From positions 3,441,061 to 3,505,060 of the forward strand of contig CM119271.1 of the NCBI GenBank assembly GCA_051294375.1: a stretch of 64,000 nucleotides of DNA, read 5' to 3'. Positions 1,831 through 54,195 of this stretch are shown piece after piece (position 1 is the stretch's first letter; each line of letters starts with the position of its first letter). Origin of the DNA: Paraspadella gotoi. Lineage: Eukaryota; Animalia; Chaetognatha. Under the pieces are notes generated by a model that was not told where the DNA came from, did no database searches, and worked only from the letters and a program-made list of their open reading frames with translations. Position numbers and translations under genes: made by a program.

Positions 1831-4800
1831 TCATTTTAATCTCCAGACTAAAACGAAAATGAAAAACTTAAGAGATGGAGAGAGAAAAAGGGAAGAAGAA
1901 GAGTTGGGATCCGAAGTCGCTTCGTTCGTTTTCGCCTCCGCCATTTTAAGTTTTTTCGGCTCAAGATCCAAAACGAACAAGGGGCGTTCGACTTCGTCGT
2001 CGTTTTTGGCGTCGACACCTTCGTCGACCATCTTCGGCTTTATGAGTAAATCGCCGCTGACGACGGAAACGACTCCGTTTAGTCCGTCGATCGCTTCGTC
2101 GGAAGACTCGCGCGCAGCCGACGGCGTCGTCGGCGCCGGCGGGTTCCGAGGAGCGCTCCTCTTGGGCTGCGGCAAAAGCGGCGTCGTCAACAGAATTTCG
2201 GCCACTCGACCTTCGCCTCGAGACGACAACGCCGCCACGCGGAATACGAAGTCGGCGCCAGTTTCCAAATGGGGAATCTCGACGGAAGTCACGTTGGGAG
2301 GCAGGCGCTAGCGGAGAAAGAAGGAAATGAAAAACGGATCCGCATTCGATCAGCAAAAAATAAAAACTAACCCTCCTGACGGCGGTTTCCTTGTCCAGCA
2401 GCGGGTGAGGGCTGAAGGGGGAATAGAATCCCCCCTCGGTCCGCCGCCGCCGCTTTCCCCACAAGAGGTTCCATCCCGTCAGCGATTTGGCCGGCCAACC
2501 TTTGGGAAAGTCCCAGGAAAGCTTGACGACCACATCGTTCCTGGTTACCTGAAAATCGCAAGGAGTCGAGGGGGGAATAACGATCGATAAACCACAACCA
2601 ACACCGGCCACCACGAGCCCGGACACTCACCCTGTACTCGTAGGCGAGGGCCTCGGGCCTTTGAGGTAGATGAGAAGAGAGGGCGTTGGTCTCGAGGCCG
2701 CATTGAGGTTCGATCCGGCCTCTGACCAACGTGTCTTTGCATCCGAGGACGTTGACGGTCACGCGGGAAATGGGACCGCGTTTGCCGCTTGACGAAACGC
2801 CTTGGACCTGGGAAGAGAGAATTGAAAAAAAAAAAGAAATAAGAAAAAAAAATAATAAAAATGTATTTGGTACCCTATTCCTCCTCCTTCCCTCCTTTCG
2901 GGCATTCCCGCCCTCAAGAACCTGAATATTGTAGCGACAATCGAATCGCAGGTCAAAGACTGTGAATCTGTTGTCGCTCGTCGTCGTCGTCACGGGTTTC
3001 GTCATCAGCGAATCCAAAGAGCCGCCGATGCAAACGTCAGGCGACCAGTGAATCATCATCTGAGAATAAATGAGGAAAATGAGTTTTGTCTTTTGTTTTT
3101 TGTTTATCACTTTGAATAGCAAATAGAATATTATATTTAAATATTTAACTCAAAAATATTTTAACAAATAAATAGAATAATAAATAATAGTTAGTTTAAA
3201 TCTAAAAAAAATAAAAAAATAAAGATAGTGAAACAAGTAATTTTTGCCCAGTGTGGCGGTATATTTCACCACGCCGCCTCACGTCCACAATCCTTCAGCC
3301 AAATCCATTGGCTCAGAGGGGGAAACACCATCCCAGGCGTAGTGTTCCATCCACAGTCCTAACGACTTCCCTCTGCGTTGGCAAAGCGAGACCGTCCTAG
3401 GGTAACGCGCCAGTGACTGGATGCGTCACTGAGGGTCGGAAGCCCCAAAGCCAACAGTGAGATGCCCATCCCAATGGGCATCACAGGCAACCCGGCTGTT
3501 GCCATAAGTGGTGAGCCCTACTATCGAACACCAACCTTCTCAGGGTACGCTACGACAAACGCCTATGCCCTGCCGACTTCGGGTACGCTACGACAAGCGC
3601 CTATGCCCCTGGGGTACGCTACGACAAACGCCTATGCCCCCACAACTCGCCGCTCTCTCTCTCTCTCCCACTATGGTAACAGTCTTGTCAGACACCTCTC
3701 AGGCTTGAGGAACTGAGTGATGTCTTGGCCCGGGGATCCTGGCGGTATATTCACAGCCTCACGTCCACAATCCTTCAGCCAAATCCATTGGCTCAGAGGG
3801 GGAACACACCATCCCAGGCGTAGTGTTCCATCCACAGTCCTAACGACTTCCCTCTGCGTTGGCAAAGCGAGACCGTCCTAGGGTAACCGCGCCAGTGACT
3901 GGATGCGTCACTGAGGGTCGGAAGCCCCAAGCCAACAGTGAGATGCCCCATCCCAATGGGGCATCACAGGCAACCCGGCTGTTGCCATACCAGTTTCATA
4001 AATCGAATAATATTTTTTGCCGCCCGAATTAACCTTTCTCAACTCGGAACTTGTTCTGCTTACGTCTGCGGTAAAATTTTTAACCTCGAATAATTAAATA
4101 GATAAATATTTTTTTCAAACGGACCTGGCGCGTAGCGCCCTTGTCTCGGGGCGAGTTCCACGCTAGATCGACCCTAACCAATCCGTTCTGAAAGTAAGGG
4201 ACGCCGGCGGTGAGGTTCTCGACGAGCGCCGGAATCGGCGAGTCCAGGGCGAGATCGATCACTGCGTCGATGAGTCGTTGGCCCGAGGGGTCGAGACGGG
4301 GCCGCGCCGCATCCGAGTGGGGTCGCTTAGGATCGTTAAGTATTCTAGCGGGGTCGACGACGCGGGGCTGGGGCGATGGGCGTGGAGACACTGGCGCCTC
4401 GGCCTGGAGTCTCTGTGGGGCCGAGACTCGAGCCTCGTCTGGAGGACAAAAATCATCGTTAATCTTTGGTTCTACGATCATGTTTACCAAAAAACTCACC
4501 TCCATGCGTGGAAATGACGACGTGAGTTTTCTTGCTCCTTAGTTTTCTTCCTCCGAACTGAATGACCGCCTGCACTTGGACCAGATACACGGACGATCCT
4601 TCCAGATTTTTGAGAACGAACTCGGAATTTTTTCCCGATATCGTTTTCTTTCCGTCCTTGCGGGGGGGGAAACCAAAAACGTAATTTGGAGTCGTGACGA
4701 ATCGGTTAAAGGGTCAATCAGACGAGCAGACGAGCAGACGAGCAATCAGACGAGCAACTGACCTTTTGTTTGCGACGCAAGACGCTTTGACCCTTGATCT

Positions 4801-6950: not shown

Positions 6951-7807
6951 TCAGCATATTTTGGAGGCTTCGGCGGCAAAGTCGACGTCTCTCAGGGCGA
7001 AGTTGACGTCGTCGACGGCGACGTTGAGTCTCACGCGACGGTGGATATCGAGTTTCCCGGCTTCGAGGAGGAGAAGGCGGGAGTCGTTGAGGTGGTTGGC
7101 GATCGTGGAGAAGTCGCTCATCCGGAGGACGGGGAGAGCTGAAAATGTAAAGGGGGGGGGGAATTGTGTTAATATGCAAAGCGTCGGTTGTTTATGGTTT
7201 TGGGGGGTTGACAGTTTTGATTTAATTGTTGACTTATCAAATTGAATTAACTTCTTGCATTAATTCAATTTTTTTTAACATCTTTTTTTTTTGCAGAAAG
7301 TTTTCTGAAGTAGGTTAATGCAGATAAAAATTTGTTCAATGTCAACTACCCATTTCTTCTCACCCTCGAATCGGCAGATGGCTTTGTGATGTTCGAAGAC
7401 GCGATGGAACAGGGCTTCCTCGACGCCGCGCTCCCGAAACTCGGCGACGACGGCGCGGAGCAGGATCTGCTCCTGCAGCGAGGCCGCCTTCATGGCGACG
7501 ATCAACGGGGAAGAATACATCTCGTCCAACGCCTGTTGCACGTGGGAGATGGAGACTTGGATCTGGCGAAGACGTGGGGGAGGAGCAAGTTACTAGTCGT
7601 GAATTTTGTTATAAGTTTCGAGATCATCTTCCTCTTAACTCGGTCGTACCTTTTTACCCAGTGCTCCCCTCTCGGCGATCTCGGTGGCGCGCCGACAAAT
7701 GTCGAGAGCGCGGCGAGCATCGCCCGAAACCGCAGCCACTTTTCGGGCGGCGAACTGAACAGCCTCCTCCGAAAAGCACTTCAGGCCTGGAAGAAAGAAA
7801 AAGAATT

Positions 7808-7851
<44 letters not shown>

Positions 7852-10800
7852 AGTTTTAATGTTTAAAAAAAAGGGAAAAAATGAATCCTCCTCTCACCGG
7901 TCGTCCGCGACACCACGATCTCCTGCAGCTGCTTGAAAGTATACGGTTGAAAGATGAGCCGAGTGAGTCCGAGTCGACTCGCTACTCTATTCATCAGCAC
8001 CCGCTCCGGCAAGTCCATCGTGTTGGCGATAGCGAGAACGGTGAGCCGCGCCGCCGAGCGAGAGGGCCAATCGAAGACGTTGTAGAGAACGTCCTGCTTG
8101 GGCGTCATCAGGAGGTCGAGCTCGTCGACGAGGAGAACGACGGCCGGACGTCGGGATGACGTCGCCGAAAATCGCTTGTCGAGGAGGGTGCACGCGTGGT
8201 CGGCCGTCGCCTTTTGGCCTTTTTAGTTTTGTCATTAAGGAAAATTAAAAAAAAAAGTTAAGAGAAAATTACAATACGTACTGCAACCCAATATCACTCT
8301 GAAAAAAAAAAAAGCGTTTTACCCGTCAACTCCTTGTGAATGGCGACGTAGGCCTGGCGCGGATCCGTCAACCTCATCCCGTTGATGTCGATGAAGAGAA
8401 ACTCCCCGACTCTCCCCGCAGTCCGCTCCGTCGCCAGCGCCCGCATCACTTCGCGCGCCGTCGCAGTCTTACCGGTGCCTGGAACGCCGCTCACGTACAT
8501 GCAGCCGCCGACGCCTGAAAAAATATTTGTAAATTTATAAGAAAGATGATCATTAATTGAATATGTAAAAATATAGATTGCGGAAGTGTCTTGATTTAAA
8601 GCTTGTAGGGCCCTTCTAGGTTATTATCTTGTAAAAAAAGATGGGTGCTTTAACATGTCCAAAATCAGGGACATGATTAATTCATTGAATGAATCGCTAA
8701 CTTATATTATATTGGTTTTTATCAATTTTTGAATTTTGGAGTAAAGTAAAACTGAAACAAAAACGTTAACTCACCCTCTGTCAGGTTCCCCTTTACAAAA
8801 TTGAATATCGTCTCGAACTCGTTGTCCCGACACGGAAGCGAATCGGGCACAGCTGAGACGTGCAGCCTCGCCCGCGCCGCCTCCAACTGGTTGCCCGGCG
8901 CCAACACGGACGTGGCGCGAGCCTTTGTTCCCGGTGTCATGTCACGGGCCCGCCTCGAAGGCGTCGGTGGATTTCGCTTGGGCGTTGTGAAAGGCTTCGA
9001 CGGCGTCGCGGCCTTTGTCTTCGTGGGCGTGCTTGTCGGCGTCGTGGCGGGGGAGTTCGTCGCCGGCGCAGCTGATGACCTCCGAGACCGTTTCGACGGC
9101 GTCTCTCGTTTAACCTTTTGCGGGGTTTCTCTTCTCGTCTTTTTCGGCGTGGTTTGATCTTCGAAGGCGGCGACGGCGGCGGCGCGGCGCCGCTTGACCG
9201 GACTATCGTCCATCGAGGGTGAGATCTCGGTGTAATCGACAGGAATACGTCGCGAACGAGTCGGCGTCTCTCGACCGCGCGAGGGCGTGCGACACCCGCG
9301 ACTCGGCGTTTGCCGGCGAGTCGGCGTCGCCGAGGCGGCGGGCGGGGTCGATGGTTTGGCGGGACTCGCGTCCGCGCTTTCCATGGCCTCGGCTTTCTTT
9401 GCCGGAGTTCTGCGGCCTCGCGGCGTTCGACGGACGGGCGTCGATGGGAGCGGTCGCGTCGGAGTCGTAGGTACGGATGGCGCGGTTTTAGTAGGAGTTT
9501 TTGACGCCGGTTCATCTTCGTGATCTTTGTCGGGTTTCCCTCTTCTCCTTGGCGTTGTCCTCGTGGACGGACTCGCATCCCGCCGAGGCCGTTGGGGCGT
9601 CCGTTTCAAAGGACTCGCGTCCCGGTTTTGAGTGGCCGACTCCGGCGCCTCTTTCGTTTTCTCCTTTTTCTTAGCGACGGGAGAATCGAAGGCTTCGTCG
9701 ATAAAGTCGTCGATGGCCTTCATGTCGAAGGCGGCGTGAGAGGCGACGAGCGGAATCGAGGAAGACCGCGACGACGCAGAAGACAAACGGCGCGAGAAGT
9801 TTCCGATAGGCGCCGTCGATGCTGGTCCCTTTGATCCCACGGAAGACACCGAGAAAGGCCGAAGCGCCGTCTTCGAAGAGTTCAAGCTTTGCTCGACACA
9901 GTCCAGAGGCACAGCCTTAAGTTGTTGTACGATTTTGTTAATCGACGCTTTACCATCTTTTGTATCGCAAACGGTGTTTTCCTTTGTCTTCTTTTTGTTG
10001 TTGTTGTTGTTGTTGTTTTCTACGTTCTCTTCGTCGGAATCGCTCATGAGATGATCCACGACGGAGTCAGTCTTGAACTTTTGTTTCGGTTTGGCGGAGG
10101 TCAGATCCAAACGGCGGCCCGGGGATACGATTGGCTCGGCTTTTTCCTCTTTCGCATTTTCCACCTTCTTTCTTTCTCCGACGTTTCCCGAAGACGAGTG
10201 TAACTTGCGAGTGGCGAGACAAGAACTCGCGTCGGCCTTTTTCGTGAAGAAAGGCGTGTCGGCAGTGCTCTTAGAACGATCCTTGACGAGGGTGATGGAA
10301 GGCAACGGGGTGAAGTTGGAACCGGCCGTCGACGATGAGCCAAGGGTTAACTTCCGACCCTTGGCCACGTAGGGAATCGTCTCGTCGAGGTCCGCCCCAC
10401 TCGAAGATGGACGGGACGTTCGAGAGATTTGCTTGATGCGGTCCATCATCGTCGTCTGGTCGACGTTCTTGATTTTAGGCGCGACGGAGGCGTCGTTTTC
10501 GTCCGGTAGTCGACGAGGAGGCGCGGCGCGGTTTTCCTTATCGCCACAAGCGTCAAAGTCCCTGGCTAGGACGCGGGGCGACGCGCGAGATCGGGAGGGA
10601 GTGGCGCCGCGGCCCGTAGTCGAGGCGCTGCGGGGTGTGCGTCGTCCGGAGGTCGGCGCTTTCCCGACGGGGCTTTTGGATTCGATGCGACGGGATGGAG
10701 TCTCCCGTTTGGGTGTCTCTTGCTTCGGCACGCGTTCGCCGAGGGGCGTGCACCGTTTAGGGGTTGCCCGTCGCACGGGAATTCTTTCAGGGGACTCCAT
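6951..10800 (-). CDS. ORC1: Origin recognition complex subunit 1 (long SP/TP-rich disordered N-terminus, AAA+ and winged helix; no BAH domain seen)
   Basis: [24 protein letters not shown], Walker [44 protein letters not shown]; stop TGA at 6953-6951. Confidence 0.95.
7809..7849. repeat. (AAT)n microsatellite in an ORC1 intron
   Basis: Directly visible. Confidence 0.95.
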
Positions 10801-11311
10801 TTTTTCAGTTAGACGAATTTAAAGACGTTTTTAAAATAATAACCTAAGCTTAACTGCGAGGGAAATCATTAAAAAACTGGCCATAAAGAGAAAAAATGTA
10901 TATGAGGACTGAGAAGTGAAGAGTAAATACATATACTTTATTAAAGATAAACCGTTATTGCAATTAAATTAAATTTTCAACATGATTGTTCATCACAAAT
11001 ATAGCACCAAATCGATGACAGACGAATATACGAGTAAAGAAAAGCTATTAAATTGGGAGTTAGATTGCCACCTAATTGATAATCAGCGCGTGTAAAATTT
11101 AATTAGGAAAGTGCGTTATATATAAATGGGGGCTAATCTATTTCTAAGATCAAATTAATGTGAAAAGGTCTCTACCATAATGAGACGCTCCAATTCTTCC
11201 AACGTTTGTTCTCATTAATCTGAAACGTCAGAAAAACGAAAAGAAAAAAAAATAATAAGCAACATTAAAATTGTTTGAAACAGAGTTTGATTTGAAATGA
11301 TTGTTCGTTGA

Positions 11312-11600
11312 CGGTCGTATTTGACAGCGCTATGGGCGGCAAAACAGGAATACGAATGAAAAAAAAAGATGTAATGGTGTAGAGAATTCGTTTTATTTCT
11401 AGTTCTCTCAAAGTTTTTTTTTAGCACATTGACATTTCCATCGTCGCGACTCGTCGGTCGTATTTGAAAGCGCTATGGGCGGCAAAAGGCGAATACAAAT
11501 AAAAAAAAATGTGATGGTGTAGGAGAATTCGTTTTTAATTCTAGTTCTCCTAAAGTTTTTTTTTTTTTTAGGTCACAGTGACATTTCCATCGTCGCGACT
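11312..11600. repeat. Tandem duplication (~143-bp unit, 2 copies) directly after the glycerol kinase stop codon
   Basis: CGGTCGTATTTGA.AGCGCTATGGGCGGCAAAA...GACATTTCCATCGTCGCGACT at ~11312-11451 and ~11455-11600. Confidence 0.9.
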
Positions 11601-11605
11601 TTATT

Positions 11606-13626
11606 TCACCGTTTCACTCTTCCAAACAGATACTCGCTGGCGACGACGATGGCGAGTGAGGCGAAGGCGTAGACGCCGAAGGGAAAATAATATTTGTCCT
11701 CACCGGTTTCGACTGGTGCAGAGTCAGCGCCGTCCTTAGCGGCGATCTCCCGAGGCGTCGTCCAGTTCATGCAACGAGACACGGCGTCCTTCCACTTGAG
11801 GAGACGCCGCGTTCGCTCGGCTTCACTCAGGGTCGGGAGGAAAGTCTCAGTCGTGGAAGAATCTTCGTCAAGGGAGGTCGTCCAAATTTTGAGGGCCTTG
11901 CCGGCCACATAGGCTGCGCCCAAGGCTGTGGGAAACAATCAAGAAAAATTATAATAATTTAATAAACATTTTTTAAAAAAAATACAATTCACCAAACCTG
12001 TTGTTTCGATCATAGACGGTCTGGCGACCGGGATTCCCAGCACGTCCGCTTGGATCTGTAGCAATAAATTGTTGCTACTCATCCCACCGTCGACTTGGAG
12101 GCGATTGAGCGATGCGCCGCAGTCCGACTGCATTGCTTCCAACAGCTCCTTCGTCTGAAAGCACACGGCCTCCAAAGCCGCTCGACAAATGTGCGCCTAA
12201 GGAAAATTAAATCGAATATGATCATAACTTTAAAAGATACAATTGTCGTCGAAAATACGGAGACAGCATTTTCCACACACCTTGGAGGTAAATTGCGACA
12301 ATCCGCATATGATCCCTCGCGCCGACGACTGCCAGTAGGGACAAAACAGTCCGGAGAATGCGGGTACGAAGTAAGCGCCCGACGTGTTGGTTACCGTGCT
12401 CGCCAGCGCCTCCGCCTCCGAGTAGCCAGAGATGAGTCCCATTTGTTCGACGAGCCAATCGATGGCCGCGCCGGCTACGGCGATAGAGCCTTCGAGGGCA
12501 TAGCGAGCCGGCTCCTCAGGACCCATCTTGTAGGCGACGGTCGTGAGGAGCCCTGTTTCGGATATAAGTGGGTGCGACCCGATGTTGTACAAGAGGAAGC
12601 AGCCGGTGCCGTAGGTGTTCTTAGCGTCACCGCGTTGAAAGCAACCTTGGCCGACCAGCGCCGCCTGTTGGTCGCCAAGAATACCGGAAATGGCGACGCC
12701 GCGGAGACGACCGGCGTTGGAAACGACGCCGTATACTTCGGAGGAAGATCTGGAAGGAAAAGAGTGATGCTTGAAGAATGAAACGGGTAAATTAAGGTCA
12801 AATATATAAATTAATTGTATTCAATGGAATTTAATTGTTGAAGCATTATTTTCCTCTCTTACCTAACCTCCGGCAGCATCTGACTCGGAATTTCGAAAAA
12901 GTCCAGCAGCCTCTGATCCCACTTCAAGGTGTCGATGTTGAGCAGCATCGTTCTCGAAGCGTTTGTGACGTCGGTGACGTGTACGCCGCCCTTTACGCCG
13001 CCTGTCAAATTCCACACGATCCAAGAATCGACGGTGCCGAAGAGGGCGCGGTTCTCTTCCACGGCGGCGCGAACGCGGTCGCTGTTGTCCAAAAGCCATC
13101 GAACCTTCCAGAAGAATACAATATAAAATATGAAAAACAAAATTAAGGTCATTGTCAAACAAACCTTTAGCGCGGAAAAGTAGGTCGACAAAGGCAAACC
13201 ACACCAGGATCTAAGGTAATCCTTATTCTTTCCCCCGGGCGTTCTGGCCACCAACCGTTCCACCGTCTCCGCCGTCCGCGTGTCTAGCCAGACGATAGCG
13301 TTATGCAGCGGTTGTCCGGTTTCTTTGTCCCACACGACGACGGTCTCTCGCTGGTTGGCCACCCCCACCGCCTGAATGTCCTTGTGGTCGATGTTGAGGG
13401 CGTCGAGGTTGTCGACGGCGCGTTCCATCGTCTCCTCGACGGTGCGGAGAATGTGCATGGGGTCCTGTTCCACCCACCCCTCGCGCGGGTAGAAGCGCTG
13501 CACTTCCATTTGGTGGTAAGTGAGGACCTCCCCGGTATCTCCGGCGAAGACGTAGAACCGGGTGGAAGAAGTGCCTTGGTCGATAGCGCCCACGAGGGGC
13601 GAGGATCGACGAATGTGACTCGCCAT
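11606..13626 (-). CDS. GK: Glycerol kinase with C-terminal hydrophobic helix; multi-exon
   Basis: [64 protein letters not shown]; C-tail [19 protein letters not shown]. Confidence 0.95.
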
Positions 13627-14852: not shown

Positions 14853-16730
14853 TTATCCCAAAACGGCGCGAAACTCAGAACGGAGAACGCTCCACGAGAA
14901 CCTCTCCGTGTCGATCTCCACGACGGCGGAGCGGGCGAGCGCGGGAATCTCGCAGAAGCGCTTTAATTTGTTGAAAAGTTGAGTCGGCGTGGAGAAGAGG
15001 TGGGCGTCTGGGTAGAGCTCGGGATAGACGAGAGATTTGGGAGCGAGGGGATAGCAACCGGCGTGGATCGCTGGAGAAGGTGGGAATTTGCGAAAGAGTT
15101 GTACCAGCGGCTGTGATATGACTTCGAGCTGGTGGAATGGAATCACCAGGACATTTAAATCTCACCCTCCAGCATGGCGACGCCGAAAAATTCGTGTTTG
15201 GCGGTGGAGACGACCACGTCGGCTTCCTGCAAAATAGCCGCGTAGTCCTCCCTCGATTGGGCGAATCCCCATCGGACAATCTCTCCGGAAAGACGAGTTT
15301 CAGCTGGGGACATTCATAAAAAAATAAATTGACTATTTACCAGAAAATTGTTGCCATTCTTAAAATATTTTAACAACGCAACGTAATCTTCGCAAATTCA
15401 GATTCCTCACATCTCCGTATTTTCCCCTCACCTTCATCGAAAATCGGCGGCGTTTGCGAAAACCGTTCGCCGAGGACGCTGAGGCGAAACGGGCGATCCT
15501 CGTCTTTGAGTCTGAAGAGAGTTTCGAAGAAGAGATCGGGGTCTTTGTCGTGCTCCCATCGATGAGGCCAGAGGATGTGGAGGGGCTTAGAAACCTTGGC
15601 CCTGGGGGAAACAGCCAAGTCGATAAGAAAAAGAATTAAATCTGCGAGTTAGATAAGACAAGGTATTAGTAAAAGGACTCACTGGTTGCCGAGGCACTTC
15701 GCCCGACGAAGACCGGTAAAATCGACCGGAAAGTAAAGAACTCCGCATTTAGGAGCGATCTTGTCTTTTAGATTCTTTGGTCTGTGATCGGGTATTAGAT
15801 TGAGAAATCGATCGATGTTATCCAAGAAGGAGTTCATGTTGTAACGACTGTTGAAAAAAACCTGAGGGAGAAAATATCATTATGATTATCAATTTGCTGG
15901 CGACATCGAATCATTCAACACTGACCTTATCGGCGACGAGACAGGAGAGAATTTGATTGTATCCGAACTGAAAGTCCCTCTCTCGGTTGTCCGCGTTTCG
16001 CACGGGGTAGACGAGTTGATTCTCGTGAAAGTAAAGGATTTTGTTGGGAATGCGAAGAATGTCAGAACGCAGGGAAACGAGCTCGGCGAGATTCAGCACG
16101 CTGGGGAGGAAATGAAACTGTATCGATCAGCCAATCCCATTGGCTCAGAGGGGGAATGCACCATCCCAGGCGTTACGTTACGTTACGACTTCAATCTGGG
16201 TTGGCAAATGGAGACCGTACTTGGGTAACCGCGCCAGTGACAGGAGGCGTCAGTGAGGGTCGGTAGCCGTTAAAACCAAAAGCCTCATTCCAATGTGCAT
16301 CACGGGCAACCAGACTGATGCCATAATGTCTAATTATAGTTTAATGACATTAACCTCACCTACTGACGAAAAGGGTCTTGACGTCAGCGGCGGCGTCTTC
16401 TGGTAGAGAGGTGGAGAGCCACAGGGCGGAGGTTCGGGCTCGCCAAGGCCATTTTTTTCCGGGCATGGTGATCAAGGTTGTTAGGGTGAGATCTGACAAT
16501 GGGTAATATGCAATGTTAGCAACCACAAAGCATTTTTGAAAAATGAACTTTTGTAAAAAGAGTGGAAAAAAAAAAAATTCGGCAGCATTAGTTATATGAA
16601 ACTCACCAAAAGACGAAAGCAGCAAGTCGACGAGCCGCTTGTGAGACCCGGCGTAAAATGGTTCAATAAGAAGTATTTTGCGTCGTTCGCCATCGACGAT
16701 CATATCGTTGAGAACTTCCGGTGAACCCAT
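14853..16730 (-). CDS. GTDC1: GTDC1/QTMAN glycosyltransferase (tRNA queuosine mannosyltransferase family); multi-exon
   Basis: ILLIEPFYAGSHKRL, KKWPWRARTSAL, LYFHENQLVYPV, DFQFGYNQILSCLVAD, ILWPHRWEHDKDP, STAKHEFFGVAMLE. Confidence 0.92.
16119..16325 (+). mobile_element. Diverged, 5'-truncated solo LTR of family 1 in a GTDC1 intron
   Basis: CCATTGGCTCAGAGGGGGAA..CACCATCCCAGGCG...GGGTAACCGCGCCAGTGAC...GCATCAC.GGCAACC...GCCATA matches 3252-3506; no TSD found. Confidence 0.75.
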
Positions 16731-18229: not shown

Positions 18230-33466
<15,237 letters not shown>

Positions 33467-35615: not shown

Positions 35616-38600
35616 TCACAACAGATCACGGAACTTGACGGGCTTTCTGACGGCATTTGAGTATCCCTCCTTAAAACAAAACCAGAGGGCGTCGCCCGAA
35701 TAGTTTCTTTTCTTCTCCATCTTCGCCGACGCAACTCCGATTTTGTCGTCTCCGGTAGGACTCTTAATAACACGCCCGAAAAAGTCTTTGACGACACTGA
35801 TCTTTGGCGTTTTTGGCGCCGGTTTAGCGCTTGCCGCTGGATGAGATTTTTCAGCGTTATTTTCCTTCGGCTTGTTTTCCTTGGCCCCGAGGTTGGCGGG
35901 GCCGAAGAGTCGGTTCAGGGTCGACGGTTTCGCCGCCTCAGTCGTCTCTTTTTTAGTAGGCGACGCGAATGGATTCCGCTTCTTGGGCGAGGCTTTTAGC
36001 GTCTTGGCGGCGACCGCTGCCTCCGATCGACGCATCCGCGCCAACTCCAACTCGCGCGCCAACATCTGCTTAGCCGCGTAAGTCAATTGGCGCGGCGCCG
36101 TGGGCCGACTGCCGTCCGATGAGCCCGAAGTTGCAGAGACGGCGAAGCGGGAGAGCCTATCGATTTTGGGCTCCAGAACGTAGTGGTACTGCCCCTCATC
36201 CGTCTTTTCTTGCTGATAGGTGAGCCCGAAGGACATCATGTTGTCGATCAGTTGGGCGATCTGCGCTTTTTCCTTCGCAGAGTACAACTGGGCGTTGACG
36301 GGGCGGAGTCCTGGGACAGAAAACAAAGCTCAGCAAAACTGTACAAAAATCTTATATTATTAATTTATGAACAATTGAAATTTTTTTACGATTGAAACAT
36401 AACCTGGTTGAATGATTTCCATCAGCGGCGGCAGCACGTCCTCCAGCAGCAACGGAGGGGTCAGCCATTTTCGAATCTTGAGCTGCACCTCGTCCAGCGC
36501 TGATTTGATAAGCTGCGCGTTCTGAGTTGACTTCGTGTAATTTTCGAATTCAGTGTTCGGATACTTGACCTACAGTTTTAAATATTTCGTCCTTACGACT
36601 CTGAATGCCGATTGTTAAATAGTTAATACGTTTTCTCAACTTACCTTTGCCGGATTATTAGTGGCGAAGAGCAAGTGAAACGAAACGGGAGCGAAATGGA
36701 GGTAAGGCATCATGATGTAGTTTTGAGTGGAGAGTATTTTGGTAGACATAGCGTCGTAGAGCTGCAGCCACGACTCGGCTAGATTGAGCGCTACCATCCG
36801 CGAGTCTTTGATTTTGGCGAAGAGGTAGTTTTCGAAAAGTCCCTAAAATTGGACGGTGGACCCAAAGTCATTTATTGAATTAACTTTTGAAAGACAATTT
36901 GAAACTTTATCCTCGACAAACTTACCTGCACGATCTTCTCCGATTCGCCGACGCTTTCGACGAGGCTCAAGGCAGAGTCGAAACGCGACGTCCTCGCGGG
37001 AGTACGAGTTGAAGGCCCCCTGGGGCATTGGTCAAGAGCGAAGGGCTAGATGGACAGATTATTTTGCAGCTTTATAAAGAGTCCAAGGGGGGGCATGTGT
37101 GATGCCTGGGGTGTGAGGCATCTCCCGACAGCTGGCACTCAGGGCTTTAGACCTGCAGTGACCACCCCATGTCACTGGCGTGTTTATGCCGACACCATCA
37201 CACTTTAACCAGCGTGACCGTGAGGGGATCGAACCCGGAACTCACGGTTGGTGAACGAGTACTTAGCTGTCCATGTCACCATGTCACCAAGCTATACGGT
37301 AGAGCGTTGAAAAATAACAAAATATAACAAATCAAGTGAGGTACATAGCTATTAAGGCGTAGTAAAATTTCTAAATTTAACTTTAATTAAAATTCTAAAA
37401 GTGAAGAACGAACAACATTATACTAATGAACATTTATGTATAAAAAAAATTTATAATAAATTTTACAATTTACGCAGTAGGCCATATTTATACTAGTACT
37501 AATCCAATAAATGTTAAAATTTCAAAACAGTTTTTTCTAAGATTTTTTTGCAGATTTGGATTCGTCATAAAAAGTTGATAAAAAGAAATATAACTCTTTT
37601 TAAAAAATTCCTTCATTAAGTGGGTCACAAATTAGAAAAAACTATATTTTAAGCTGAAAATTAACTTTTTATATATTAAATATAGTTTTTGTAATTTTTA
37701 ATCCACTTAATGAAAGAATTTTTTAAAATAATTTATATTTTCTTTAATCAACTTTTGACGAGGAATTCAAATCTGCAATCAAAATTAAGAAAAGACTATT
37801 TTGAAATTTTTCGATTTTATAAGGATAGTACTATATATAAATATAGCCTACTGCGAAAATTAAAAAACATAAAATTAATTTTTTTTACAAATTAATGTTC
37901 ACTGATGGTATGTTGTTCATAATTGACCTTTAAAATTTTTGTACATAACTTTCACTACGCCTTAATAGCTATTTTAGTGTAAAGTAATCTATAGAATTCG
38001 ATGGTGATGACCATTTTTTTGTATAATTTTATCTTTCTTGTCGGAAATGACGGTTTTTAATTAGGGGTAGCCGCACTCAATGGGGCGAGTCAAAAATTTA
38101 GAGCGAGTACGTGCTCAAACGAATATTTATACATTTTTAAGAATACTTTCATTTAAGTAAGTAGACAGGGATTTGAACATGAAACCAAAGTGGAATTTAT
38201 TGATATAAAAACAGATATGAAGACGGTGTCAATTTTGGACAGAATACTCAGATACAAAATTTACATCTATTTATACAGAGCAAGTGGATCAGAGACGTGG
38301 GTAAATTTTACAGCCTCTTCGCTCATTGGCCGCTTCCATTTGAGTCTTGACCAATCAGATAGCTCGATTCCATTCTGGTAATTTCTTCCCGAGCCTCCGA
38401 TCCGGTTCCGTCTCTATATAAGAGAGCTCGATTCCATTTCGGTGATTTCTCCCCGAGCTTCTGATCCGGTTCCATCTCTGTATCTTCTGCTTTCAATGGA
38501 CAAAAAATTTCTAATATGGCTCGATACCCTAGTAATTAATTTTTTAATATTTATTTATAGATAGGAAAGGTCAAAGTTTTTTTTAAAGATTTTTAAATTT

Positions 38601-41600
38601 TAAGACCAGATTCAGATAGTTCATAAAAAGTTGTCTACACAAAGTATGATTCTTTTTTAAATATTTTTACGATAAGTGTGTCAAAAATAATAAAAACTAT
38701 AAAAAATCTTTCGATGATTTTATCAGTTTTTTATATTTTCACTAAGAAAACGTAAGAATTTTTAAAAGCTGTAATTATATTTCTTGTTTAACTTTTTATG
38801 CTCTATCAGAATCTATCAAAAAAATTTAAGATTTTAAAAAAGTATTTTTTGCTCTATATAGTAATATAATATTTTTAATTAGGCGAGTAAGAAAGCATTT
38901 TTGACAAAAAATATTTTAATACCATAATCTATGGTCATGATAGATTATTTTAACGCTGTATACATTAGCATTTAAATTTCTTCGGCTATGGCTATTTTAA
39001 TGTATATAAAATTATTATAAAATAGCAAAACCATTATAAGTTATGATAAATCAAATTATTAAAATTTTATAAAATTTATATGAGCTTTTGAAATATAAAA
39101 ATAAAGACTTATAAAAATATTTTGGTAAGTTTATTTCTAAATTTTATGTTTTATAAAAAGTTAGTTAACTATATTTATTAATAATTATGAGTAAAAATTG
39201 AGCTAAAGTTAAAAAATAATAATTTCAAAATTTTTTTCATGGATTTGCATTCTTTGCAAAAAGTTGATATAAGAAAATAAAATTTTTATATCAAAATTAT
39301 GTTATAAAGTTGGTCAAAATTCAGAAAAACTATAATTTTAAGCCAAAAATTTAAACAAAAATAAGTTTTTAATATTTTTAACCTACTTAATGAAAGAATT
39401 TTTTAAAATGGATTATACTTTCTTATATCAACTTTTTGTAAGGAATTCAAATCCGATTTTAAAAATTTTAAAATTTTTATTTTTTCACTTTAGCTTATTT
39501 TTTATTAATATTTATTAATAAATATAACTAACAAACTATTAATAAAATATAAAATTTGTAAATAAACTTACCAAAATATTTATATGGGTCTTTATTTTCA
39601 TATTATGTAAGTTAAATATGGCTTTTATAAAATTTTAATAATTTGAATTTCTTATACTCTACAAGGTTTGCTCCATTTTAATAGCACCTTATATGCTGCA
39701 AAAATCGCCATTTCCGACAAAGAAGATGAGACTATACAAAAAATTGGTTATCATCATCGAATTCTACAGACTTTATTACACTAAAATAGCTAGATGTACC
39801 TCAATTGATTTGTTAAATTTCATTATTTTTCAACGCCACAGACTCATCAATAATTAAGTTAAGTTTCCCCTTACCCGTTTTTCGGTTTTCGGCATTTGAA
39901 ATACGCTCTGCCAAACACTGTACAAGCTCCGGTGGACGTCTTTCTCCCCAACGGCGGAACTGTTGACCATCGCCTGAGTCAATTCCTTGTAGCGCCCTCT
40001 GACGAACTGCAATGTGTTAAGGCAGCCGCGCACGTCGTTCTCCATCTTGCGGCAAAGCAAGCGGATCGTCGCCTGATCAGCCTTGAGGCGTTCTGCGCGA
40101 GAAACATGAAGTAGTCGGTGGATGAGACGTTGGGAATCGGTGGCGGGCACACGCAGAACCAGCGCCATCTGGCGAAGAGCGCGGATGGAAGGGGCGTAGA
40201 GGTCATTGCAGATGCAAACAACTGGACGCAGCAACGGTTTGGGTTTGTTCTTTTTCTTGCCGGTGCCAGTCGAAGGATCCGCAGCTGATGCGGCGCCGCC
40301 GCTGCCGATCTTGAGAAAGTTGACGAGAACGTTGACCGCAGGTGCGGCGGCTCCGTCGATCTCGTCGACCACGAGGCAGACAGGGCGCGAATCTTCGCCG
40401 AGGACGGATTTGGTTTGACAGGCCGCTTCGATCTTGTTTTTAAAGGCCTGGAGTACGGTTCATAAATATGAGACATTTAGACATTCTCTACACCCCCCCC
40501 CAAAAAAAAACAAACAAACAAAGAATTAACCTCCGCGTTACGATCGTCGGAAGCGTTCATCTCTTGAACGGCGTATCCCGCGTGGCGAGCGACCACGTGA
40601 GCGAGAGTCGTCTTCCCAAGACCTGGCGGTCCACTAAGAAGGACGACCTTCTGCTCTGGTCGACCCAACTTGTCAAACTCTTCCGTCAATTGGCCGGGGT
40701 CTTTAAACTTGGACCCGGGGGGGAATTTGGAATTCTTCTCGTTCTTAAATTTGAATGGCCGTGCCTGTCCGGCCTCGCTCGTTTCATCGCCGTCTCTCTT
40801 CCCGGTAAATTTGTCATCGCCGCTGGGATTTTTTCCAAACTTGTCGTTCTTCCACCCGTCGCGACCCTTGTCCCTTTTGCCGAACTTGCTCACAAAGTTG
40901 TCGTTGGACGCGGAAACTCGCGCTTCGCCGACGGGTGCGAGATGCTTTTTGTCTTTGGTCAGTTTCACCTCCTTCCCAAAGACCAACTTGTCCCACATCT
41001 TGAGCCATCGCAAAAAGGTTCTGTTGACGCCGTCGTCGGAGAGCAAATCAGTGTAGCCGCGGGGTGCGTATTTTTCAACCCAGAGTCGGTGGCGGTCGAT
41101 CACCGCATCGGGCTACAAAGAAAAAAAAAACGAGCGAATCATAAGTATAAAACCAATACTTTGATAATCGATGCACTTCACCTCCCAATCACTCGACTCA
41201 CGTCAATCCCTTCCTCCTCGTCCTCCGACTCAAAGAACTCTTGCTCATCCGCCAACTCGACTCCCTTCGCCGACTCCATCTCCAGGACGACGCGACGTTT
41301 GAGGGCGGCGAAGTCTTCGGTTAAAAGGTTTCGCCTCTTAGACGCCAAGAAGACGCGTGACTCGCGTTCGATTCGCTGCCACTCGTGCTCCGGGGCGGAG
41401 GAAGAAGAGTCGAGCTGGAGAGGGAATCGAGATATAGATTTCGCACACAGTAACACATCGCTGTTTAAAAGATTAATTTGCTTGGGACAAAATCAACCTC
41501 TTCATCCGGCCGCACGGAGACGTAGACACGTCTCCCGCCCTCGCTTCCCGTCACGAAGACGTAGTCGTCTTCAGGAGGCGGACGCTTGAAGACCCTTTTC

Positions 41601-52084: not shown

Positions 52085-54195
<2,111 letters not shown>

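Follow-up and report, generated by a model that had tools for sequence, protein, structure and literature searches.

In the accessible parts of the literature, retrozymes fall into two groups, plant LTR elements with type III hammerhead ribozymes and animal non-LTR elements with type I hammerheads. The plant LTR retrozymes (PMC4918200, PMC7761336, PMC9695139) are non-coding LTR elements with a PBS, a PPT and a 4-bp target-site duplication (TSD), which carry one self-cleaving motif at the same position of each LTR and give a unit-length RNA of about 700 nt with a GC content above 55%. Cervera et al. proposed that their cleaved monomer is circularised and then reverse-transcribed by a Gypsy enzyme (PMC4918200). 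The metazoan non-LTR retrozymes (PMC7229834; bioRxiv 10.64898/2026.07.22.740005) are non-coding as well, and some of them act as dimers; they form tandem repeats of a ribozyme-delimited unit, possess no LTR, PBS or PPT, and are linked to Penelope-like elements. The monomers of animal retrozymes are circularised by RtcB in vitro.

Twister ribozymes have been associated with retroelements in RTE-type LINEs, where the Perere-3/RTE twisters (Liu et al. 2021, PMC8501958) are single, 5'-terminal motifs of autonomous non-LTR elements, with a weak P1 formed from flanking DNA. Liu et al. also noted that 1.6% of the Schistosoma twister variants have LTR RT domains downstream of them, and the accessible text claims no link between the two (PMC8501958). 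Furthermore, the Helenus/TRIMp3 elements (PMC10886601) are TRIMs of less than 1 kb with a box A-like motif in the LTR and a PBS 2 nt after the LTR; animal Helenus elements have 4-bp TSDs, and the conserved marks of the group according to Kojima are TRGCY, YGG and GGTTC. The word 'twister' does not occur in the accessible text of that paper, which describes no ribozyme in Helenus. In the LTRs of Helenus-2_SyJa and Helenus-2_SyUm from gall wasps (PMC10886601, DataS1), we recognised by eye a type III hammerhead with a GUC site, a CUGAUGA and GAAA core and complementary loops, lying after the tRNA-like part; the main text of Kojima, as far as it is accessible, makes no mention of it.

The 64,000-nt stretch of Paraspadella gotoi DNA analysed here (the window) contains a 738-bp element (Table 1). 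A preliminary description had placed at this locus a miniature LTR element within a CCAG duplication, with TGTGGC...GCCATA termini, TGGTGAGCCC shortly after the 5' LTR, CGGGGAT before the 3' LTR and some 230 bp of non-coding interior, and all of these were found as described, the interior measuring 233 bp. With less than 1 kb, a pair of LTRs, a TSD and zero coding capacity, the element is a TRIM. The two LTRs align over 246 identical columns and 11 gap columns, the latter mostly in homopolymer runs, with zero internal substitutions, and the insertion is therefore young; errors of assembly may account for part of the indels. The two mismatches in the alignment printout are the CC preceding the 3' LTR, where the first TG is missing. 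The PBS-like site has TGG at +3 and, compared by eye with the 3' end of honeybee tRNA-Trp (PMC10886601, Fig. S2), shows complementarity at 11 of the first 13 nt. The PPT-like site includes CGGGGAT (3731-3737), and its purine run is just 5 nt long.

Table 1. Features of the element and of the related LTR copies in the window.
Feature	Position	Strand	Remarks
Whole element	3252..3989		738 bp; termini TGTGGC...GCCATA
Left target-site duplication	3248..3251	none	CCAG
Right target-site duplication	3990..3993	none	CCAG
5' LTR	3252..3506	+	255 bp; TG...TA ends; flanks of many contigs diverge at 3506/3507
3' LTR	3740..3989	+	250 bp; first TG absent in this copy
PBS-like site	3509..3518	+	TGGTGAGCCC; 2 nt past 5' LTR
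Three 28-nt internal repeats	3543-3570, 3581-3608, 3612-3639	+	hairpin predicted for each
Interior stretch complementary to LTR end/PBS junction	3668..3681	+	junction at 3497-3512
Weak PPT-like site	3731..3739	+	CGGGGATCC
Box A-like motif, 5' LTR	3309..3319	+	TGGCTCAGAGG; 1 mismatch; overlaps reverse CCAAT box at 3307
Box A-like motif, 3' LTR	3789-3799	+	TGGCTCAGAGG; 1 mismatch
T-arm-like remnant with box B-like motif, 5' LTR	3339..3355	+	GTTCCATCC at 3344; 4/5 stem pairs, read by eye; 7-nt loop
Box B-like motif, 3' LTR	3825-3833	+	GTTCCATCC
Type-P5 twister fold, 5' LTR	3377..3455	+	P2 one C shorter than in 3' copy; predicted cut U3403/A3404
Type-P5 twister fold, 3' LTR	3858..3936	+	complete
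P5, 3' LTR twister	3858-3863/3931-3936		6 bp
P2, 3' LTR twister	3867-3869/3888-3890		3/4 pairs, one C-A
General-base G, 3' LTR twister	G3871
T1 pseudoknot, 3' LTR twister	3873-3875/3919-3921		CGG/CCG
P1, 3' LTR twister	3876-3883		2-3 bp as hairpin
Predicted cut, 3' LTR twister	U3884/A3885
T2 pseudoknot, 3' LTR twister	3891-3892/3924-3925		GC/GC
P3, 3' LTR twister	3893-3899/3907-3913		7 bp
P4, 3' LTR twister	3915-3917/3926-3928		3 bp
Older solo LTR	16119..16325	+	76% identity; nhmmer E 6e-32; TSD absent; lacks box B; P2 of twister broken
Diverged solo LTR	29444..29662	+	70% identity; nhmmer E 4e-18; TG...CA; TSD CCAT; P4/L4 deleted

Rfam returned partial twister-P1 matches in both LTRs, that of the 3' LTR (24.4 bits, E 0.011) far under the gathering score of 67.2 of the type-P1 model and that of the 5' LTR weaker still (14.2 bits, E 9.3); on 3845-3940 the P1 model alone matched, no type-P5 family being listed. 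The type-P1 model cannot align the permuted strand. The strand missing from the match (P2', G-A and T1') sits upstream and a 6-bp P5 closes the whole, which identifies the type-P5 permutation (PMC5408937). The marks by which twisters are recognised are a U-A site, a general-base G, the T1 and T2 pseudoknots and extra pairs in P4/L4 (PMC5408937, PMC6154101). The 3' LTR holds the U-A site, the general-base G, a T1 with three Watson-Crick pairs and an A-A, a GC/GC T2, and the extra G-C and U-A in P4/L4, and every helix and both pseudoknots are able to form. The T1 pairs CGG/CCG differ from the CCC/GGG of the Rfam consensus by two swaps that keep the pairing. No Rfam hammerhead match was obtained in the element.

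The catalytic A after the scissile bond, a second A and the general-base G are identical in all four LTR copies of the window, across which AAA, GA, UAA and GC are invariant. Moreover, five pairs are changed on both sides in the 29444 copy and yet remain paired (three in P3, one in P2 and one in P1), and one outer P3 pair is broken at a deletion; this covariation is drawn from a single diverged copy, aligned by hand with a hand-set loop length. A descriptor built from the Rfam consensus found one site in 128 kb (both strands of the window) and none in 100,000 dinucleotide shuffles of the LTR, figures that are optimistic because it was composed after the sequence had been seen. It is passed by one of the four LTR copies: the 5' LTR misses a C in P2, the 16119 copy, where Rfam found no twister, has a broken P2, and the 29444 copy has lost P4/L4. 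In contigs from public runs (see below), the 5' LTR form has a depth of 678 at 3404, whereas nearby positions of the 3' LTR reach some 500,000; the intact twister form is therefore the common one. The well-supported twister variants, in the 40 of 64 listed, fall in the P3 loop and at the outer edge of P4. Loose contig ends of older copies show UCCG or CCCG in L4 followed by the kept AAGC, and the 29444 copy has a G at the matching T1' position, which hints at a T1 swap between subfamilies, not seen on one molecule.

The fold also has flaws. The C-A mismatch of P2 adjoins the active site and recurs in every copy that retains this position, and P2 length is suggested to matter in one twister review, within its accessible text. 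Minimum free energy folds recovered P5 and at most P3, not P2 and P4. In large-scale assays of type-P1 twisters only (PMC11662667, accessible text), as in other published assays (PMC5113685), flaws in P1, P2 and P4 were tolerated and T1 pairs were exchangeable. P1 is unstable as a hairpin (+2.7 kcal/mol), and is a self-complementary 8-mer whose duplex reaches -11.0, kept in the 29444 copy (-7.4) and lost in the 16119 copy; only the central UA separates dimer from hairpin. As a lead, the two LTR ribozymes may thus pair with one another through P1. Taken with its covariation, the LTR fold is very probably homologous to twister, and it is likely that the ribozyme is active within the family. A reading of GGAGACCG as similar to box C of 5S rRNA was rejected, since Rfam gave no 5S match and the stretch is the catalytic strand of the twister. 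A scan with the twister motif gave no match in metagenomes and none in viral contigs; a looser scan returned 42 loci that were judged to be chance, with the downstream L4 motif in none of the 42 and a 31-nt blastn match in one.

Two other loci had been described as solo LTRs. The one at 29444 is flanked by CCAT; the older one at 16119 is genuinely related but has an eroded 5' end and lacks a TSD, and in nhmmer the relatedness of both to the LTR is far above chance. Abundance was sampled with the contigs of four public runs (X1, X5, X9 and X10) mapped on 3100-4150, of which 7,294, 2,270, 540 and 2 matched, respectively; the 29444 copy was matched by 13, 12, 2 and 0. No run that carries the element is recorded as RNA; X9 and X10 are presumed to be RNA and, being contigs, say nothing about expression or RNA ends. 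Relative to a single-copy contig, the summed depth is about 31,000x (X1) and 33,000x (X5) in the ribozyme bins and about 3,200x (X1) and 1,200x (X5) in the interior. Summed contig depth is not copy number and is usable as an order of magnitude alone, and so read it points to the order of 10^4 LTRs, mostly solo copies. The TG inserted at the start of the 3' LTR accounts for about 45% of the X1 depth at that place. In X1, 61 and 95 contigs depart at 3506 and 3507, with a flank agreement of 0.41-0.43, and in the 16 of about 790 loose contig ends listed TGTGGCGG follows variable DNA; the termini are therefore fixed on both sides, without a common tail. These fixed termini, a 4-bp TSD at two of the three loci and the high depth agree with what had been proposed, namely a non-autonomous new family mobilised repeatedly, probably by Gypsy.

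After 3531, the contigs of all four runs switch to another shared interior sequence, which suggests that another subfamily shares the LTR and the PBS. The AT-rich left flank (3136-3243) has a depth of about 7,000-12,000 against about 35 in X1, which suggests a second repeat at or beside the insertion site. Run X10, whose label names another organism, contains a single contig of 276 nt that matches 3325-3590 with 2 differences and 4 gaps, either from a close relative or from contamination.

Between 1800 and 48400 the window is densely packed with minus-strand genes that have GC3-rich exons, among them those for an FN3 protein, two AAA ATPases (presumably ORC1-like and CTF18-like), glycerol kinase and neurobeachin. 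For the glycerol kinase, the best matches from named organisms share 55-61% identity, and in a quick single-gene tree of 50 of 121 rows it forms a long branch in an open fork next to pancrustacean sequences. All three loci are antisense within introns of minus-strand genes, the splice sites being read by eye. Antisense bias is common among transposable elements, and this orientation would be expected if sense copies cut the pre-mRNA, three of three being weak (p 0.125). The window also holds two related long inverted repeats (37389-37939 and 39092-39604; arms of 100-144 nt, 72-86%), MITE- or foldback-like, and a 119-nt repeat of 85% identity (23773-23891 and 53354-53472) with no relation to the LTR.

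The preliminary description had further read a tRNA-type Pol III promoter in the LTRs, with A and B boxes closer together than in a tRNA. The spacing was right: the boxes start 35-36 nt apart, about 10 nt under the roughly 45 nt of tRNA. Against general consensus motifs, box A was found in four of four LTR copies, perfect in that at 29444, and box B (1 mismatch in 9) in two of four at no more than one mismatch. Among 20,000 shuffles, 0.9% gave an A-B pair of equal quality and 45% gave a box B on its own. A T4 run is absent from the plus strand of the whole 738 bp, which suits Pol III read-through and, like box A and the T-arm-like remnant, speaks for the promoter; the short spacing and a box B without GGTTC speak against it, as do the negative results for tRNA in the LTR (no ARAGORN gene, no Rfam match, fold z -0.10). 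Among the Helenus marks, TGGCT is present in four of four copies and YGG in one (29444), the others having AGG, and GGTTC in none, box B reading TGTTC in both LTRs and AATTC at 29444 and being lost at 16119. A potential 6-nt self-priming match of box A with the PBS was no better than chance. From these motifs, the chances that the element is transcribed by Pol III appear evenly balanced.

A TATA at 3260 and a reverse CCAAT at 3307, with both types in both LTRs, raise the alternative of Pol II. The promoter could then be Pol II, or transcription could come from host read-through, with incidental A and B boxes as the chance-level frequency of box B alone would allow; the LTR of a Nicotiana retrozyme has promoter activity, for which the accessible text does not name the polymerase. 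Box A, kept in all four copies and perfect in that at 29444, which has neither TATA nor reverse CCAAT there, argues the other way. This is a real possibility, which leaves the rest of the cycle below in place and is a variant of it more than a competitor.

The anatomy of LTRs, TSD and PBS, the high abundance, and a twister fold whose key residues are conserved and whose stems covary lead us to propose that this non-coding miniature LTR retrotransposon, with a type-P5 twister fold in each LTR, is probably an animal LTR retrozyme that moves through a self-cut circular RNA. Transcription would start near box A of the 5' LTR, by Pol III or otherwise, and cross the T4-free element. The ribozymes would cut after U3403 and U3884 and release a 481-nt RNA with 5'-OH and cyclic-phosphate ends, which a host RtcB-type ligase would close into a circle. 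The reverse transcriptase of a Gypsy-type helper, primed by a tRNA, would read through the circle and rebuild both LTRs, and the integrase of the helper would produce the 4-bp TSD. The predicted unit has a GC content of 57%, and its circular fold is somewhat better than those of shuffles (z -2.3). Since such a unit is without terminal redundancy, a circular RNA template is favoured by analogy with plant retrozymes, and we regard a circular intermediate as rather more plausible than its absence. The rare letters A3289/A3769 and T3422/T3904 are common to both LTRs, as expected if one template gave both. A Gypsy helper is suggested by the 4-bp TSD and by the PBS, which comes close to the tRNA-Trp type that Gypsy-32_NVi and Helenus-2_SyJa use (PMC10886601); no such helper was found among the 20 ORFs scanned in the window.

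The element thus resembles plant LTR retrozymes in being a non-coding LTR element with a PBS-like site, a weak PPT-like site, a 4-bp TSD, one predicted self-cleaving fold at the same position of each LTR, a GC-rich unit and a predicted unit-length RNA. Unlike them, it has a type-P5 twister instead of a type III hammerhead, lives in an animal and is smaller (250-bp LTR, 481-nt unit), its PBS is not of the tRNA-Met type and tRNA-like boxes lie upstream; circles are described for plant retrozymes and predicted here. We infer that it works like an LTR retrozyme, yet it is no member under the hammerhead definition. It shares with Helenus/TRIMp3 the size, the box A-like motif and the position of the PBS, and with animal Helenus the TSD length (here at two of three loci), and differs from Helenus in the missing GGTTC, the short spacing, the absence of a detected tRNA and of a T run after box B; we call it Helenus-like. 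The nearest layout is that of the Helenus-2_SyJa and Helenus-2_SyUm LTRs, with a hammerhead following the tRNA part. With the Perere-3/RTE LINEs it has in common the twister class, an animal retroelement as carrier and a weak P1, and it differs by having two internal type-P5 twisters in LTRs. Finally, it is animal, non-coding and delimited by ribozymes like the metazoan non-LTR retrozymes, some of which act as dimers, and it differs from those tandem repeats in its ribozyme class, in its LTRs, PBS-like site and PPT-like site, and in their link to Penelope-like elements.

An active twister could instead only trim the RNA ends, tidying the 5' end or standing in for a terminator, in an ordinary linear TRIM that uses strand transfer and makes no circle. 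The 5' ends of Perere-3 LINEs are processed by twisters without circles (PMC8501958), the ribozyme could act as 3' end where a T4 terminator is missing, and the 5' LTR copy is flawed here. However, cuts at the same site in both LTRs would abolish the terminal redundancy that strand transfer needs, and the intact form prevails in contigs, so that both LTRs would normally cut; we hold this explanation to be unlikely. Less likely still is a plain Pol III TRIM of the Helenus kind, in which the twister fold would be the unused relic of a captured ribozyme-bearing SINE, as Kojima proposed SINE capture into LTRs (PMC10886601). The above-chance A-B pair, the lack of a T4 run, the low Rfam score and the C-A mismatch in P2 would fit a relic, but compensatory changes between subfamilies about 30% apart, the invariant core and the absence of GGTTC from box B count against it. 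That the locus is two SINE copies in tandem or a structure arisen by chance, and no LTR element, is largely refuted and highly improbable: the TA in place of CA at the LTR end and the weak PPT would suit this view, against which stand 4-bp TSDs at two loci, TG starts, a PBS in its usual position, a distinct interior of high depth and, as the test proposed earlier required, fixed 5' ends in many contigs without a common tail, TSD length being checkable at three loci only.

The account of this locus as a Pol III TRIM, as first proposed, leaves out the twister fold, which changes how the element probably replicates and makes LTR retrozymes its nearest known counterpart. The element is a twister-based variation on the retrozyme design. 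Neither a twister in an LTR nor an animal LTR retrozyme was found in the accessible literature, with subscription papers and Repbase/Dfam entries mostly outside this coverage. In its boldest form, our proposal would make it the first LTR retrozyme known from animals as well as the first to use a twister, transcribed by Pol III and mobilised by Gypsy; its LTR twisters would pair via the palindromic P1, and the 481-nt circle would come from full-length transcripts with two LTRs alone. This full combination is tentative and rather doubtful.

A twister LTR element in an animal would break the split between plant LTR and animal non-LTR retrozymes and, if a twister-based LTR retrozyme is true, the class of ribozyme would be interchangeable within the LTR cycle. 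It would give a concrete role to the rare type-P5 twister, in a field where twister function is largely unknown, and it offers a very high-copy natural library of variants for studies of covariation and activity. Together with the gall-wasp Helenus hammerheads, it would make a Pol III promoter plus any self-cleaving ribozyme in the LTR a recurrent animal design and, if true, such elements would be a source of viroid-sized circular RNAs in animals.
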